A DNA stretch of 64,000 bases from Planctomycetota bacterium (GCA_046290465.1 JBKAGP010000001.1:672001-736000); one strand, 5' to 3'; counted from the first letter of the stretch, positions 18,001 to 30,000 are shown. Made by a program: the numbers.

Positions 18001-21000
18001 CCCGAGGTCGTGCTGAGGTAGAGGTAGCAGTCGTCGTCGCCGCCGCGGGAGTCCTCGGTGAACACCGCCACCGAGTAGTTCGGCGCCTGGCCGAACACGC
18101 ACAGCTGGCTCTCGCGCTGCGCGGCGAACGTGGTCGGCGCGGCGAACGAGGTCAGGTTCTGTTCGGCGCCGAAGGTCGCGCCGTCGTCGGTCGACACCCG
18201 GATGACGGTGTCGTTCCAGTTGTTGTTGCCGACGCCGGCGGCGGCGCGGTCGTCCTGCCAGCCGACCACGACCAGGTCGTCGACGCAGGCCACCATCGGG
18301 CGGCGAGATGGCTCCAGAACTCGGGGAGTGGAAGATGGCTCCACTGCTCGGCCGGCAGCCGGGGCGTTCCGTGAGCGGTGCATGAAGGTCGCGACCGGCG
18401 CTGGATCTGCGTGCGATCTTGTCCGTTCGTTGGCCGTCGGCTGCGCAGCAGGGCCCGGGCCGGGGGCGGGCGACAAAGCCTGGTGCGCGGCGCCGCAACA
18501 ACCGTCGCGACGCTGGCCAAGCGGACCCCACCCGCTATGCTGCGGGGTTCGAAACTTGGCCACGAACTCGAAAACCACCTCCCGCAGGGCCGCTCCGGCG
18601 GCGCCGAAGCGGGCCCGCAAGAAGGCCCGCAAGAAGGCCCGCAAGAAGGCAGCTGGGGCGCCGGCGCAGGCGCCACAAGTCGTGGTGCGGGGGGCGCGTG
18701 AGCACAACCTGAAGAACGTCGACCTGGCGTTCCCGCGTGATTCGCTGACGACCTTCACGGGCGTCTCGGGCTCCGGCAAGTCGAGCCTCGCGTACCACAC
18801 GATCTACCAGGAGGGCCAGCGGCGCTTCCTGGAGAGCCTGAGTTCGTATGCGCGGCAGTTCCTCGGGCGCATGGAGAAGCCCAAGGTCGACCACGTCGAA
18901 GGCCTGTCGCCGACGGTCTCGATCGACCAGAAGTCGACCAGCCACTCGGCGCGCTCGACGGTCGGCACGCTGACCGAGGTGATGGACTTCCTGCGGCTGT
19001 GCTGGTCGCGGCTGGGCGAGCCGAGCTGTCCCGAGTGCGGCGCGGCGATCGAGTCGTGGTCGCCCGATCGCATCGTCGACGCGATCGTCGCCGAACACGA
19101 CGGCCAGGCCGCGATGGTGCTGGCGCCGGTGGTGCGCGAGCGCAAGGGCGAGTACCGCAAGGAGCTGGTCGAGTGGGCGCAGAAGGGCTTCGTGCGGGCG
19201 CGCATCGACGGCGTCGTGCGCCGCCTCGACGAGGACATCCAGCTCGAACGCTACGTCTAGCACACGATCGAACTGGTCGTCGATCGCCTGACGATCAAGC
19301 CGGAAGTGCGGTCGCGGCTGGCCGAGGCGGTCGAGCAGGCGGTGCAGCTCGGCTGTGGCCTGTGCACGCTGGTCGACGGCAAGGGGCAGGACGACCGGCT
19401 GTTCTCGACCCAGCGCAGCTGCCCGGACGGCCACGGCGCGCTGCCCGAGATGGAGCCGCGGCTGTTCTCGTTCAACAGCCCGATCGGCGCGTGCCCGAGC
19501 TGTGACGGCATCGGCGAGACGTTCGGTTTCGCGCCGGAGCTGTTGGTCCAGGACGAGAACAAGTCGATCCGCGACGGCGCGCTGCACGTGTTCACCGACC
19601 AGGGCCGGCTGGTCTACGGGCGGTTGACGATCGAGCACCTGCAGGGCGTGCTCGAGGCGTTCGGCGGCGACGTCGACACGCCGTGGAAGAAGCTCGGCAA
19701 GCGGGTGCAGAAGGTCGTGCTGCACGGCTCGGGCAAGAAGAAGTTCGAGTTCAAGTGGCAGCGCAAGACCGCGATGTTCACGACCTCGGGCAGCGACAAG
19801 GTCGCGTTCCCCGGCGTGCTCGGCCACCTGGAGAAGGTCTACCGGCCGTCGCGTGCGCGGCACCTGGATCGCTTCCGGGCCGCCACGCCGTGCGCCGAAT
19901 GCGACGGTTCGCGGCTGTCCGCGGCGGCGCGGGCGGTCACGTTCTGCGGCCGCACGTTGCCCGAAGTGCTGGCGATGTCGGTCGACGACGCGCTGGCGTG
20001 GGTGCGTGCGATCGAACTGAGCGGCAACGACCTGCGCATCGGCCGCGACATCCTCAAGGAGATCGACCGGCGGTTGACGTTCCTGGCGGACGTCGGCCTC
20101 GGCTACCTGACGCTGGCGCGCCGCGCCGCGACGCTGTCGGGCGGCGAGTCGCAGCGGATCCGGCTGGCGGCGCAGGTCGGTGCCGGCCTGCGCGGCATCC
20201 TCTACGTGCTTGACGAGCCGAGCATCGGCCTGCACGCGCGCGACCAGCAGCGGCTGCTCCGCACGCTCGAAGCGCTGCGCGACCGCGGCAACACCGTGGT
20301 CGTCGTCGAGCACGACGAGGAGACCATGGAGCGCAGCGACTTCCTGGTCGACGTCGGCCCCGAGGCGGGCGCGCACGGCGGCCGGGTGGTGGCGGCGGGC
20401 ACGCCCGACGAGGTCAAGGACAACCCCGCGTCGATGACCGGCCGCTACCTGCGCGGCGACGTGCAGGTGCCGATGCCGGCCGAACGCCGCCGCGAGGATC
20501 GCGGGGCGCTGCGGGTCCGCGGCGCGCGCCACCACAACCTCGACGGCCTCGACGTCGACCTGCCGCTCGGCCGGCTGACCGCGGTCACTGGGGTTTCGGG
20601 TTCGGGCAAGTCGACGCTGGTGCACCACGTGCTGGTGCCGACGATCAAGGATCACCTCGCCGACAAGGGCGTCGCACCGGCGCACTGCAAGGCGGTCGAC
20701 GGCATCGACCAGATCGACAAGCTGGTCGAGATCGACCAGAAACCGATCGGGCGCACGCCGCGCAGCAACCCGGCGACCTACACCGACGTCTGGACCCACG
20801 TGCGCGACCTGTTCGCGATGCTGCCCGAGTCGCGGCTGCGCGAGTACAAGAAGGGCCGGTTTTCGTTCAACGTCGCCGGCGGCCGCTGCGAGGAGTGCCA
20901 GGGGGCCGGCGTGAAGACGCTGGAGATGAACTTCCTGGCGCCGGTCGAGGTCGTCTGCGAGGAGTGCGCCGGCGCGCGCTTCCACGCCGACACGCTGGCG

Positions 21001-27000: not shown

Positions 27001-30000
27001 GCTCCCCGAGCACGTGCGCGAGCTGGTCGACGTGACGCTGCACACCCACGGCGGCATCGCCAGCTACGAGGATCTGACCAGCGAGGTCGACCTGAAGTCA
27101 CCGCCCGACTTCGAACTGCTCGGCAAGAGCCTCGAGGAGGCGATGCTCGGCACCACCGCCAACCTCGACCTGGCCCGCGTCGGCATCCAGCCGTACGAGC
27201 ACGGCGTGGTGGTGTTCCACGAGGTCGCGCTGTGGGCGATCCGCAAGCGCGGCGAGGAGCACCGGCCCGAGGTCGAGCAGGAGCTCAGCGCCAAGAGCGA
27301 CCTCAGCAGCAACGTCTGCCGGTTCCTGCGCGAACTGCAGCAGAGCAAGGTGCTGTTCACCGCCGAGGGCGAGCTGTTCAAGGCGTCGGCCAAGCGCATC
27401 GCCGGCACGCTGCTGTCGATCCCGGGCGGCTTCCTGCCGGCGGACTCGATGCTCGAGATGATCTACCGGTTCTGCCTGCAGCGCCGGCTGATCGACCGTC
27501 GCGGCGAACGTTCGCTGCGGCCGACCCCGACCGGCCTGCAGTTCGAGCGCGCCACGCTGACCGACCAGCTCAAGCTGCTGCTCGGCCACTTCGTCGAGGA
27601 CCGCACGCTGCCCGGCGAGGCGTTCCACCACACGCGCATGCGGCGCGTGCTGCTGCGGCTGCTGCGCCGCGCCGAGCCGCTGCTGTGGCAGGACGTCGCG
27701 GTGCTGCCGTTCCTGACGCGCAACGCTTACCTGTCGCAGCTCGATTCGCAGGCGGCCGAGGAGTTCTTCGCGGCGCGCTTCCAGGGCGGCGCCTACACGC
27801 CCAGCGAGTCGCTGCAGCAGATGGCCTGGAACCTGCTCATCTGGATCAAGAAGCGGCTGTTCCCGCTCGGCCTCGTCGACGTCGCGATGACCGGCGGCCG
27901 GGTGACCGCGCTGCGGCTGTCGCAGCTCGGCGCCGAACTGCTCGACGCGGAGCCGGCGACCAAGGTCGGCGGCACGCGGTGCTCGGTGATCGTGCAGCCG
28001 GACTTCGAGATCCTCGTATTCCCGGGCGACGACGTGCACGACGTGCTGCACCTGTTCGACCGGTTCGCCACCCGCACCAAGAGCGACCACGTCTACCAGT
28101 TCACGATCGATCGCGAGAGCGTCGAAGCCGGCATCGAGGATGGCCTCACCGGAGCGCAGATCGTGCAGGAGCTGACCGATCGCGCGCGCGCGCCGCTGCC
28201 CCAGAACGTGCTCTACAGCCTCGAGGACTGGTCCGACAAACCCTCGCGCTGATCCGAACTGAGACGCATCGATGAAGCCCATGCAAAGGGCTTCACGGTC
28301 CGCTGCTTCGGTTTTGCCGATGCACCGTCTGCCGATGATGGTAATTGTTCGCTGCCGCCGCGCGCCTCTCCATGCCGACCCCCAAGTTGAACGAAGCCCC
28401 CGAGATCCTCGTGCTCGGAGCCGGCCCTGCGGGCCTCGCCTGCGCGATGGAGCTGTCGCGCAAGGGCAAGACGTGCACCGTCGTCGAACGTGACGAGCAG
28501 ATCGGTGGCCTCGCCAAGACGCTGACCGTGCGGGAGGGCGACGACGTCTTCCTGACCGACATCGGCCCGCACCGGTTCTTCTCCAAGAACCAGTACCTCT
28601 ACGACTTCATCGAGGACCTGCTCGAGGAGGAGTGGCGGCGCGTGCCGCGCCTGACCCGCCAGTTCGTCGACGGCAAGTACTACAACTACCCCGTCAACTT
28701 CGGCCAGGTCGTCAAGAACCTCGGCTTCTGGAAGAGCGCGCGGGTCGGCATCGACTACTTCGTGGCGCGGCTGCGCTACGACGTGTTCGGCAAGCCGCTG
28801 AAGACGTTCGAGGACTACGTCGTCGCGAACTTCGGCCGCACGCTGGCCGAGTTCTCGATGATCAACTACAGCGAGAAGATCTGGGGCATCCCGTGCGCCG
28901 AGATCCACCCCGACTGGGCCAAGCAGCGCATCAGCGGGCTCAACCTGTGGAGCGTGCTGCAGAAGGCGATCGGGCTCGGTGGCAAGAAGGGCCCGAAGTC
29001 GCTGGTCGACGAGTTCTACTACCCGCAGTTCGGCACCGGCCGGATCTACGAGGAGATCGGCAAGCACCTGGTCGAGACCGGCACCGAGATCAAGACGCAC
29101 AGCCGACCGATCGCGGTCCGTCACGACGGCAAGCGCGTTCGTGAGGTCGACATCGAGACACCCGAGGGCGTGCAGACCGTCAAGCCGCAGAGCGTGGTCG
29201 AGTCGGTGCCGCTGACCGCGTTCCTCGACCTGCTCGATCCGAAGCCGCCGCAGCAGGTGCTCGACGCCGCCAACAACCTGCGCTGGCGCAGCCAGATCTA
29301 CCTGTTCCTGACGCTCGACAAGGAGCAGGTCACCGAGGACAACTGGATCTACTTCCCGCAGAAGGACATCCCGTTCGGTCGCACCTCGGAGATGAAGAAC
29401 TTCAGCAAGGACATGTGCCCCGAGGGCAAGACGTCCTTCTTCATCGAGTTCTTCGCGTTCGAGACCGACGAGCTGTGGACGATGTCGAAGGAGCAGATCC
29501 TCGACATGGTGATGCCGTACTTCGAGAAGTGGGGCTTCTTCACGCGCGACGAGATCCGCCAGACGTACCTGTGGAAGCGCAGCCACGTCTACCCCGTCTA
29601 CGACACGACCTACAAGGGCAACGTCGAGACCATCCGCGACTACCTCGACCAGATCGAGAACCTGATCTACGTCGGTCGCCCCGGCCGCTTCCGCTACACC
29701 AACCAGGACCACAGCCTGGAGATGGGCATCATCGCCAGCCGCATGATCCTCGAAGGCCGGCGCTACGACATGGACACGGTCGGCGCCGAGAACGAGTACT
29801 TCGAGAAGGGCCCGATCTACGAGAAGCGGATCTGAGGCGATTGGCCTGGCATGCGCGGCGCATGGGCGATCCGCGGCTGCGACTGATCTTGGTGAGCGAT
29901 GGCGTCGGCGATCCGCGCCGCATCGAAGAGGTCGTGCAGGCGGCTCTGCGCGGCGGCTGTCGCTGCGTGCAGCTGCGCGAACCGCGCTGGTCGGCGCGCG

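Follow-up and report, generated by a model that had tools for sequence, protein, structure and literature searches.

In eukaryotes, XPB and p52, with p8, form a submodule of TFIIH, as described in the passages of Greber et al. (2019; PMC6422496) on this assembly. For bacteria, the sections of Balasingham et al. (2012; PMC3353954) on the partners of XPB state that homologues of p44 and p52 were not found. A UvrA of double length has already been published for Planctomycetes in passages of a further article (Front Microbiol 2021, PMC8567305). What is new here is an XPB-linked UvrA lineage, its coexistence with canonical UvrA in some families, and the occurrence of a p52-like gene after XPB across bacterial phyla.

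The window, that is the whole stretch of 64,000 nucleotides that was analysed, derives from a Planctomycetota bacterium, a marine planctomycete of the Phycisphaerales type, and carries on its plus strand an operon in the order uvrA (two units), xpb and a p52-like gene. The fused double UvrA gene (18556..24705; 2,049 codons including one TAG) was delimited by translation and by TIGR00630 matches over the cut-off on both units, and its frame ends with TGA at 24703-24705. The ATG of xpb at 24702 overlaps this stop codon as ATGA, and the ATG of the p52-like gene at 26384 overlaps the xpb stop in the same manner. In an earlier note on this DNA, the double UvrA and its downstream genes were placed at 18682..28252, and every feature described there is present in the window. 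Judging from sequence, the likely start of UvrA is TTG 18556, with GTG 18682 as an alternative; matches of relatives begin at query residues 1-27. A domain search of the locus found no nuclease gene in the operon. We regard it as probable, taking our best explanation as a whole, that the three genes form an intact operon.

The two UvrA units are framed by basic segments. The N-terminal tail (18556..18669) is rich in Lys and Arg (K+R fraction 0.37), contains an (ARKK)n repeat near 18610-18649 and is poorly conserved among orthologues (identity 0.15). In the runs X2 and X4, 12 letters are missing in frame at 18612 within this tail, which fits a coding sequence. It is followed by the canonical-like unit 1 (18670..21555), in which two ABC modules are accompanied by a domain for UvrB binding and by an insertion domain (Pfam UvrA_inter and UvrA_DNA-bind). 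The basic linker between the units (21556..21600; K+R fraction 0.22 over the wider residues 985-1020) has a low identity of 0.31 among orthologues. Unit 2 (21601..24450) is complete but divergent, of a type termed U2 here from the trees, and aligns end to end with the solved UvrA 2r6f (862 bits). The C-terminal tail (24451..24702) is rich in Lys, with KKAPAKK... repeats and a K+R fraction of 0.33, and has an identity of 0.06 among orthologues. The earlier note had described two complete UvrA units in tandem, and this is borne out by TIGR00630 (NF001503), with scores of 1259.3 bits for unit 1 and 1048.5 bits for unit 2 (cut-off 729.8), each unit covering profile positions 2-923/924. Walker A, signature and Walker B motifs, defined by the general ABC consensus, each occur four times, all intact and at the expected spacing. 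Pfam UvrA_inter is matched once in the N-terminal fragment before the TAG and twice in the remainder, and UvrA_DNA-bind is matched twice; the double UvrA thus has the domain combination of class I UvrA (UvrA_inter with UvrA_DNA-bind). The UvrB-binding domain of unit 1 is well conserved, and the corresponding region of unit 2 is less so by orthologue identity. Uninterrupted orthologues with 77-83% identity occur in six genomes of the same genus.

The single TAG in the frame of unit 1, already noticed earlier, lies at 19258-19260 on the plus strand (context ...LERYV*HTIELVVDR), where the deposited single-contig genome has G at 19260. All four public runs over 18400-20400, compared as assembled contigs from which rare variants drop out, read C at this position, giving TAC. 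In the contig of run X1 (depth 120.9), which spans 2,001 bases and may or may not equal the source sample of the deposited genome, base 19260 is the sole difference from the window. The site had been taken for that of a conserved Lys, but Tyr stands there in 11 of 11 relatives (TAC in ten, TAT in one), so the change is from TAC to TAG. With Tyr in all runs and relatives, the former picture of an amber-cut gene, whether a fresh pseudogene or a case of read-through, is not supported. Going by the sequence comparisons, the TAG most likely reflects either an error in the consensus or a private allele of TAC; it is neither a feature of the lineage nor a recoding signal. That the TAG is real in the strain, so that unit 1 is freshly truncated to a pseudogene or to a shortened product restarted at GTG 19306, seems unlikely to us. 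The G of the deposited genome and a 1,799-codon ORF that restarts 46 nt downstream speak for it, and a minority or private allele would be compatible with data from contigs; but C in the four runs, the otherwise identical and deeply covered X1 contig and Tyr in every relative speak against it, as does a GC3 of 0.95-0.96 on either side of the site, which gives no sign of decay. That the amber codon is read through or recoded in a programmed way, say with pyrrolysine or a suppressor, is extremely improbable: the sole supporting point is that the frame is open and well conserved beyond the TAG, but TAG occurs at the site in none of the 11 relatives, the public runs read TAC, the window holds no tRNA gene, and the recoding machinery found in the genome serves UGA/selenocysteine and not UAG.

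The second gene (g00534; 24702..26387, plus strand; 561 aa) encodes a bacterial XPB helicase, as claimed before. It scores 818.6 bits against NCBIfam repair_heli_XPB (NF045503; cut-off 610) over profile positions 1-547 of 548, and its Pfam domains follow the expected order, with Helicase_C_3 at the N-terminus, the ResIII core and ERCC3_RAD25_C. The solved sequences closest to it are eukaryotic XPB/Rad25, with 282 bits versus 162 for archaeal XPB.

The third gene (g00535; 26384..28252, plus strand; 622 aa), here called P52L, had been described as a second XPB-like protein or helicase. This cannot be maintained, since a Pfam search detected no ResIII, DEAD or Helicase_C core in it, Helicase_C_3 alone passing the cut-off (residues 535-617), and its predicted fold is p52/Tfb2-like. 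At the sequence level, the similarity to Pfam Tfb2 (PF03849) is weak (16.8 bits, E 0.0035, below the gathering cut-off of 34.5), and one of nine family members scanned, the distant P0259, passes it with 43.7 bits; all 13 weak PDB sequence matches of P52L are XPB or p52/Tfb2. With the AF2 model (pLDDT 88, pTM 0.79) as the Foldseek query, all 18 matches at E<=1e-3 are TFIIH p52/Tfb2 chains, the best being 9pd3_D (1.1e-7). In the VIA comparisons, residues 196-622 of P52L align with human p52 over 36-400 (Z 14.9, 313 aligned) and residues 530-621 with the XPB N-terminal domain over 71-164 (Z 15.5, rmsd 1.9); the comparison with the N-half of p52 gives Z 11.1 and rmsd 3.1. The model thus displays the p52/Tfb2 order, in which a series of winged helices leads into a clutch domain that is homologous to the N-terminal domain of XPB, and on this predicted structure P52L is a structural homologue of TFIIH p52/Tfb2. 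By the alignment, P52L has no C-terminal p8/Tfb5-binding dimerisation module, ending at residue 622, which corresponds to about 400 of the 462 residues of p52. The NCBI label of the protein is helicase-associated domain-containing protein.

Elsewhere, the genome encodes UvrB (1004.7 bits) and UvrC (505.8 bits), as stated earlier, and both are intact. Furthermore, the earlier note had found no canonical single UvrA in the genome, and this agrees with our search, in which the sole UvrA-like gene besides that of the operon is another double UvrA at 3.36 Mb, outside the window (1,814 aa), with two UvrA_DNA-bind domains and no UvrA_inter. In lacking UvrA_inter, it resembles class II UvrA, the UvrA2/DrrC type without a UvrB-binding domain. 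The gene of the window, in contrast, has UvrA_inter and UvrA_DNA-bind in both units and is therefore not class II, and it is the only UvrA of the genome with UvrB-binding domains. The former proposal that XPB acts instead of UvrB finds no support, with UvrB and UvrC intact and a UvrA that keeps these domains.

Trees of 55 UvrA units were built with FastTree and IQ-TREE from hand-picked rows, several of which have long branches and unusual composition. In both trees, all 18 XPB-linked second units, together with two unlinked ones, fall on one side of a split with a support of 100, and unit 1 groups with canonical UvrAs. On these sequence data, the fused UvrA linked to XPB forms an orthologous lineage of its own. 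Three genomes (G028, G031 and G034) have this lineage together with a separate canonical double or pair of UvrA, and in genomes with canonical UvrA elsewhere, the XPB-linked UvrA has lost its insertion domain(s). The earlier statement that UvrA occurs in other families as two separate genes side by side is correct for G034, but in G028 and G031 the pair is one fused open frame. Open UvrA frames of at least 1,797 aa exist in at least 37 of the 150 other genomes of the phylum sample.

Conservation of the operon was surveyed at three levels. XPB is present in 39 and P52L in 40 of 41 relatives (a number that includes G000); of the 20 XPB loci fetched from relatives, 19 have XPB and P52L adjoining, and 14 have the double UvrA directly upstream of XPB, which supports the claim of a tight operon conserved in the lineage. 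In the phylum sample, XPB lies within about 210 nt of fused UvrA in 17 of 66 XPB-positive genomes and at 1.7-7.8 kb in six further ones, the adjacency spanning at least 14 family labels. Across bacteria, XPB is followed by a P52L-like gene at 38 of 64 loci from many phyla, and only 12 of 80 XPB-P52L loci have UvrA within 10 kb, all 12 titled Planctomycetota, Phycisphaerales or Phycisphaeraceae. XPB-P52L lacks an adjacent UvrA in two genomes of the same order (G037 and G030), and in two further genomes (G147 and G019) fused UvrA is present and a search of the genomes did not find XPB. The helicase pair and UvrA can therefore exist apart.

The product of the first gene is, in our best explanation, a single-chain pseudo-heterodimer of UvrA, composed of a canonical-like unit 1 and a divergent U2-type unit 2. 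It probably detects lesions on behalf of the genome's own UvrB/UvrC excision repair, because no other UvrA of the genome has UvrB-binding domains. Since the clutch domain of P52L shares the fold of the XPB N-terminus, P52L may, by analogy with TFIIH, dock on XPB and regulate it as a DNA translocase. From gene order and phylogeny, the two lines of evidence for this step, we infer that UvrA and XPB-P52L work together. The XPB-linked UvrA stays beside XPB-P52L even where a canonical UvrA exists elsewhere, which suggests a shared pathway, and the phylogeny of the paralogues strengthens what gene order implies. The three proteins may thus act in one DNA-damage pathway, conceivably with a physical hand-over from UvrA to XPB-P52L.

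It is possible, but not what we expect, that the genes are neighbours only, the fused UvrA working solely with UvrB/UvrC and XPB-P52L being an independent helicase module, co-located or co-regulated, with a different role, such as DNA remodelling coupled to transcription or associated with replication. This would agree with intact UvrB and UvrC, with the wide distribution of XPB-P52L away from UvrA, and with the genomes in which adjacency or XPB itself is missing; but the ATGA overlaps join all three genes, the adjacency is kept over at least 14 family labels, and the UvrA linked to XPB belongs to a paralogue lineage of its own and stays with XPB where canonical UvrA sits elsewhere, having lost insertion domain(s) in such genomes. 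The proposal of the earlier note, a lineage-specific excision module in which two XPB-type helicases replace UvrB, is very unlikely. Helicase_C_3 in both g00534 and g00535 and the conserved operon structure favour it, but g00535 has a p52 fold and no helicase core, UvrB and UvrC are intact, and the UvrB-binding domain of unit 1 is well conserved. Within our preferred reading of a common pathway, a rather doubtful extension is that the sensor is asymmetric, with unit 1 keeping UvrB and unit 2, which is confined to the fused lineage and has the fastest-evolving UvrB-binding region, recruiting XPB-P52L to lesions, and that the XPB-p52 pair of TFIIH shares ancestry with the bacterial two-gene module. 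If true, the locus would encode a hybrid bacterial system in which recognition of the UvrABC type is combined with DNA opening of the TFIIH type, and the core pair of eukaryotic TFIIH, XPB-p52, would be akin to a widespread bacterial two-gene module.

Among known systems, the published planctomycete double UvrA likewise derives from two fused uvrA genes and is about double the E. coli protein in length, but the passages on it do not mention linkage to XPB (PMC8567305). The chlamydial 1,809-position UvrA model (NF001885/PRK00635) shares the two-unit fused architecture, but the protein of the window reaches 1162.2 bits against an equivalog cut-off of 3054. G107 owes its fusion to an independent duplication, with the two units as sisters in the trees, whereas the second unit of the XPB-linked type is divergent and peculiar to it. 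The XPB belongs to the same NCBIfam equivalog, with the same domain order, as bacterial XPB of M. tuberculosis and Kineococcus (Balasingham et al. 2012; PMC3353954); in contrast to the statement there on p52, a p52-like gene follows XPB here and in 38 of 64 bacterial loci, a sample to which mycobacterial loci do not belong. As in the archaeal XPB-Bax1 helicase-nuclease pair (PMC7672443), the XPB gene lies beside a dedicated partner, but the partner here is p52-like by predicted fold and not a nuclease. Compared with p52 of TFIIH, P52L has no p8-binding C-terminal module, carries 195 extra N-terminal residues and shows marginal sequence similarity only (Tfb2 16.8 bits versus 34.5). Like the XPB-p52 pair as described in the passages on this submodule (PMC6422496), the two genes would combine an XPB that has its N-terminal domain with a winged-helix partner ending in a clutch domain of the same fold.

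The uvrA-xpb-p52L operon is real and conserved. Its three genes, all on the forward strand, encode a fused double UvrA (18556..24705), XPB (24702..26387, 561 aa) and a predicted p52/Tfb2-like protein, P52L (26384..28252, 622 aa). They are translationally coupled: the ATG of xpb at 24702 falls within an ATGA overlapping the uvrA stop, and the ATG of p52L at 26384 lies in a second ATGA overlap. The surrounding genes (FAD amine oxidase, thiE-like, thiL-like, sigma factor, metE-like and TusA) bear no relation to repair, and the operon is therefore taken to comprise three genes. The earlier note had placed UvrA and XPB in the same operon, which is confirmed by the overlaps and by the conserved arrangement. 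A scan of 17800-28700 gave no promoter-like site and four terminator-like sites (4.5 expected); none of the four stands at a gene end, and the scan is uninformative on transcript limits. No basis was found with PADLOC for reading the operon as a defence system: XPB had generic SF2 similarity to PbeA only (79 bits), P52L had zero matches, and the UvrA unit matched mad3 and other ABC components.

The nearest public contigs bear the titles Planctomycetota, Phycisphaerales and Phycisphaeraceae. XPB occurs in 39 and P52L in 40 of 41 genomes of relatives, the present genome included. When 20 XPB loci from 19 genomes were compared, XPB and P52L were adjacent in 19, the exception being locus L040, and a double UvrA was directly upstream of XPB in 14. 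These upstream proteins are full doubles in eight loci (families f1, f6 and f10), lack the insertion domain in one unit in two loci (f8) and show no detected insertion domain in four (f5 and f2); UvrA_inter was retained in all five of those scanned. UvrA is absent from the 5-6 kb of upstream sequence examined in the genomes G037 and G030, and two of the 20 loci stop at contig ends. In the genome G039 (f9), the double UvrA is replaced upstream of XPB by a 1,343-aa protein (L036:767-4795, on G039:C38), which has ABC_tran as its only Pfam domain and about 30% identity to UvrA units over about 500 residues, and which may be a strongly reduced UvrA derivative.

The arrangement extends beyond these relatives. 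In a sample of 150 other genomes of the phylum (completeness at least 85%), a UvrA match was found in 138 and XPB in 66, and open frames of at least 1,797 aa occur in at least 37 genomes (among 150 of the 219 UvrA matches). Two coordinate tables, compared by eye, show a fused UvrA no more than about 210 nt from XPB in 17 genomes and at 1.7-7.8 kb in six more, and these genomes cover several further family labels. The genes lie apart in those compared genomes where XPB occurs with a single UvrA of about 950 aa (e.g., G158, G098 and G173). Among 80 bacterial XPB loci, UvrA is located within 10 kb in only 12, all planctomycete-titled. A P52L-profile match follows just downstream of XPB on the same strand in 38 of the 64 loci with at least 2.5 kb of downstream sequence, and the other 26 have none at the sensitivity of this profile. 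Titles among the XPB-P52L loci include Paenibacillus, Chloroflexia, Acidobacteriaceae, Clostridia, Gemmataceae and Hydrogenedentota.

The window has a G+C content of about 70%, and in it a single frame is open from 18130 to 24705 apart from a TAG at 19258-19260. Two starts on the forward strand come into question, the GTG at 18682 proposed earlier (2,007 codons) and a TTG at 18556 (2,049 codons), which adds a Lys/Arg-rich tail (..KRARKKARKKARKK..). The TTG is favored as the probable start, because the matches of relatives begin at query residues 1-27 and because exactly 12 letters of an ARKK repeat in this tail are missing, in frame, from two public runs. The repeat, (GCCCGCAAGAAG)n at 18610-18649, codes for ARKK, and the 12 letters missing in the runs X2 and X4 represent in-frame copy-number variation between strains.

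The fused protein consists of two complete UvrA units in tandem, as the earlier note had also claimed. Both units cover profile positions 2-923/924 of TIGR00630 (1259 bits for unit 1 and 1048 bits for unit 2; cut-off 729.8), and Pfam finds UvrA_inter and UvrA_DNA-bind in each. Of the ATPase motifs, Walker A, signature and Walker B are each present four times and intact; the third Walker A is GKT rather than GKS in several orthologues. Along its full length, unit 2 aligns with a solved UvrA, 2r6f (862 bits). The linker between the units is basic and the C-terminal tail is Lys-rich (K+R 0.33). Across 19 orthologues, conservation is 0.68 in unit 1 versus 0.62 in unit 2, and the biggest difference is in the region of the UvrB-binding domain (0.58-0.75 in unit 1 versus 0.41-0.58 in unit 2).

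The TAG in unit 1 had previously been read as replacing a conserved Lys and as a sign of a pseudogene or of amber read-through, and neither reading is supported. Tyr is found at the aligned position in 11 of 11 relatives' loci (TAC in ten, TAT in one), so that the window differs by a single third-position change, TAC to TAG; the Lys that we take to occupy this site in textbook UvrA does not apply to this lineage. The TAG occurs in the present genome alone among 41 searched, and six same-genus genomes give uninterrupted UvrA matches (77-83% identity across nearly the whole query). Contigs of four public runs (X1-X4) were compared with 18400-20400, and all four, as assembled contigs that drop rare variants, have C at 19260. 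The contig of X1 (depth 120.9) spans all 2,001 bases and differs at base 19260 only; the X1 share of sampled words is 0.96, and X1 could or could not be the source sample of the deposited genome. The other three runs come from other studies and represent close strains, with 9-18 other differences each, and likewise read C. GC3 is 0.96 before the TAG and 0.95 after it, so nothing suggests decay. Since four runs read C, contigs drop rare variants and the origin of X1 is unsure, the TAG is most likely either an error of the deposited consensus or an allele private to this genome. The lineage as a whole does not share it, and the Tyr codons and the C of the runs leave no case for amber read-through.

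A window-wide scan for in-frame stops with high-GC3 flanks gave nine sites and no sign of many consensus errors; besides the UvrA TAG and a TGA in a metE-like gene, the sites resemble gene ends or non-coding frames. The host genome is a single contig of 6.59 Mb, and a lone in-frame stop in such an assembly needs a read check before it is called a pseudogene or a recoding event. The metE-like gene (Meth_synt_2; 14367-16115, forward strand) is split by one in-frame TGA at 15606-15608. A TGA is found at the identical place in the same-genus genome G011 (84% identity), and Cys (TGC) is aligned to it in G025 and G028. Matches above cut-off for selB (353.7 bits) and selA (453.1 bits) occur in the genome, and a 7-bp hairpin follows the UGA, with a fold z-score of only -0.49. 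The TGA is a candidate selenocysteine codon, and the product a candidate selenoprotein.

The XPB-linked UvrA represents one orthologous lineage with a canonical-like unit 1 and a divergent unit 2, and its ancestry is separate from that of the other UvrAs. Twenty-four double and seven single UvrAs, a hand-picked, non-exhaustive set, were cut into 55 units and analyzed by FastTree and by IQ-TREE (LG+C20 PMSF); the trees are unrooted and several rows are long-branched with deviant composition. A split with support 100 in both trees separates the second units of XPB-linked proteins, all 18 of them, along with those of G147 and G093 (proteins without a link to XPB), from the rest of the set, namely every single UvrA, every first unit and both units of each remaining double. 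First units of the XPB-linked proteins group together in the IQ-TREE tree (support 97). The two units of G107 are sisters in both trees, which indicates an independent fusion, and the doubles or pairs of G028, G031 and G034 that are not XPB-linked form two further clades in both. These groupings imply several independent uvrA duplications in the phylum. In the same three genomes, the XPB-linked lineage occurs alongside a canonical double or pair at another place (the 'pair' of G028 is a single 1,877-aa ORF), and the insertion domains are lost in the XPB-linked copy. In the window's own family, the XPB-linked fused protein is the only UvrA with UvrB-binding domains. The genome has a second double UvrA of 1,814 aa outside the window (reverse strand, about 3360973-3366417 of the contig; L121:6973-12417). 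It has two UvrA_DNA-bind domains, is devoid of UvrA_inter (the UvrB-binding domain) in both units and looks like a fused class-II UvrA by its domains; its placement in the trees is unsure owing to long branches. Its neighbors, a monomeric isocitrate dehydrogenase and a BNR/sialidase-like protein, are unrelated.

The product of xpb is a member of the bacterial XPB equivalog (818.6 bits, cut-off 610) and scores higher against solved eukaryotic XPB (282 bits) than against archaeal XPB (162 bits). A second XPB copy exists in G031 and G038 (54-56% identity). That of G031 is locus L040 (G031:C9:10000-21000), where UvrA is not adjacent, neither UvrA nor P52L matches above 100 bits, and downstream, at about 1.6 kb, there is only a weak match to P52L (E 3e-8).

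The third gene had been described as a second XPB-like protein. On its modeled fold, it is instead p52-like, a putative partner of XPB, and not a helicase. Pfam finds Helicase_C_3 only (residues 535-617) and a sub-threshold Tfb2 match (E 0.0035), an NCBIfam scan gave no match, and NCBI names its relatives 'helicase-associated domain-containing protein'. An AlphaFold2 model from a 34-sequence alignment (pLDDT 88, pTM 0.79) had 18 Foldseek hits in the PDB at E<=1e-3, all of them TFIIH p52/Tfb2 chains (best 1.1e-7). With VIA-align, residues 196-622 superpose on human p52 36-400 (Z 14.9, 313 aligned). Residues 294-521 match the p52 N-half as solved by crystallography (Z 11.1, rmsd 3.1), and 530-621 match the N-terminal domain of XPB (Z 15.5, rmsd 1.9, 92 aligned). 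According to a structural account of TFIIH (PMC6422496), XPB is recruited by a pseudo-symmetric dimer that the clutch of p52 (306-399) makes with the XPB N-terminal domain, the two having one fold in common. The P52L family profile hit 13 PDB chains (E 0.026-0.19), of XPB and p52/Tfb2 only, and one of nine distant relatives scanned (P0259) passed the Pfam Tfb2 threshold; the link between P52L and p52/Tfb2 in sequence appears weak but consistent. Among 1.84 billion entries, the profile matched 3,845 cluster representatives at E<=1e-3, or 1,924 when the limit is set at E<=1e-10. The distant members P0252, P0254, P0258 and P0259 (673-907 aa) have two Helicase_C_3 stretches and a C-terminal WYL. 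A complex prediction of XPB 1-140 with P52L 430-622, run with alignments and without controls, scored 0.14 and 0.21 (mark 0.32) and carries no weight on binding in either direction.

Going by what is established for UvrABC, the fused protein would serve as a covalent UvrA 'dimer', sensing lesions and loading UvrB, because the genome encodes UvrB and UvrC and contains no further UvrA able to bind UvrB. If TFIIH is a guide, P52L would dock through its clutch domain on the XPB N-terminal domain and regulate XPB as a translocase. A tentative hypothesis, to which we give rather less than an even chance, makes the divergent unit 2 the link between lesion recognition and XPB-P52L. The XPB-P52L helicase pair may also be a mere neighbor of UvrA, and this explanation stays well alive because the pair occurs without UvrA in most bacteria and fused UvrA occurs without XPB in G147 and G019. 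Taken together, the evidence on the TAG, the phylogeny of the paralogues and the coexistence with canonical UvrA put the odds of a functional link somewhat above those of neighbors only.

The p52-like gene translationally coupled to xpb provides a concrete candidate for an XPB partner for testing. Its pairing with xpb recurs across many phyla, and one lineage of planctomycetes links the two to a dedicated paralogue of UvrA, the damage sensor. The origin of the XPB-p52 core of TFIIH can now be tested, as can the question of whether UvrA-type lesion recognition feeds a TFIIH-type translocase.

Nothing functional on Rv0862c, presumably the mycobacterial XPB neighbor, was found by title or abstract. 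Neither a p52 homologue in bacteria nor a uvrA-xpb operon turned up in a literature search that left most subscription journals outside its coverage, which is weak proof of novelty, and no paper came up on 'class III UvrA'. The role of bacterial XPB is called still elusive in a 2026 review (PMC13024598), and p52 homologues were not found in bacteria according to a 2012 paper (PMC3353954). The fused UvrA as such is known, double-length UvrA in Planctomycetes being mentioned in a published study (PMC8567305). The window's protein differs from the chlamydial double UvrA, since it falls short of the corresponding NCBIfam model of 1,809 positions. Compared with TFIIH p52, P52L has no p8-binding C-terminal module and carries 195 additional residues at its N-terminus. 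Both the XPB-linked lineage of UvrA and the pairing of XPB with a p52-like protein in bacteria are new variants of known repair systems and are worth experiments.
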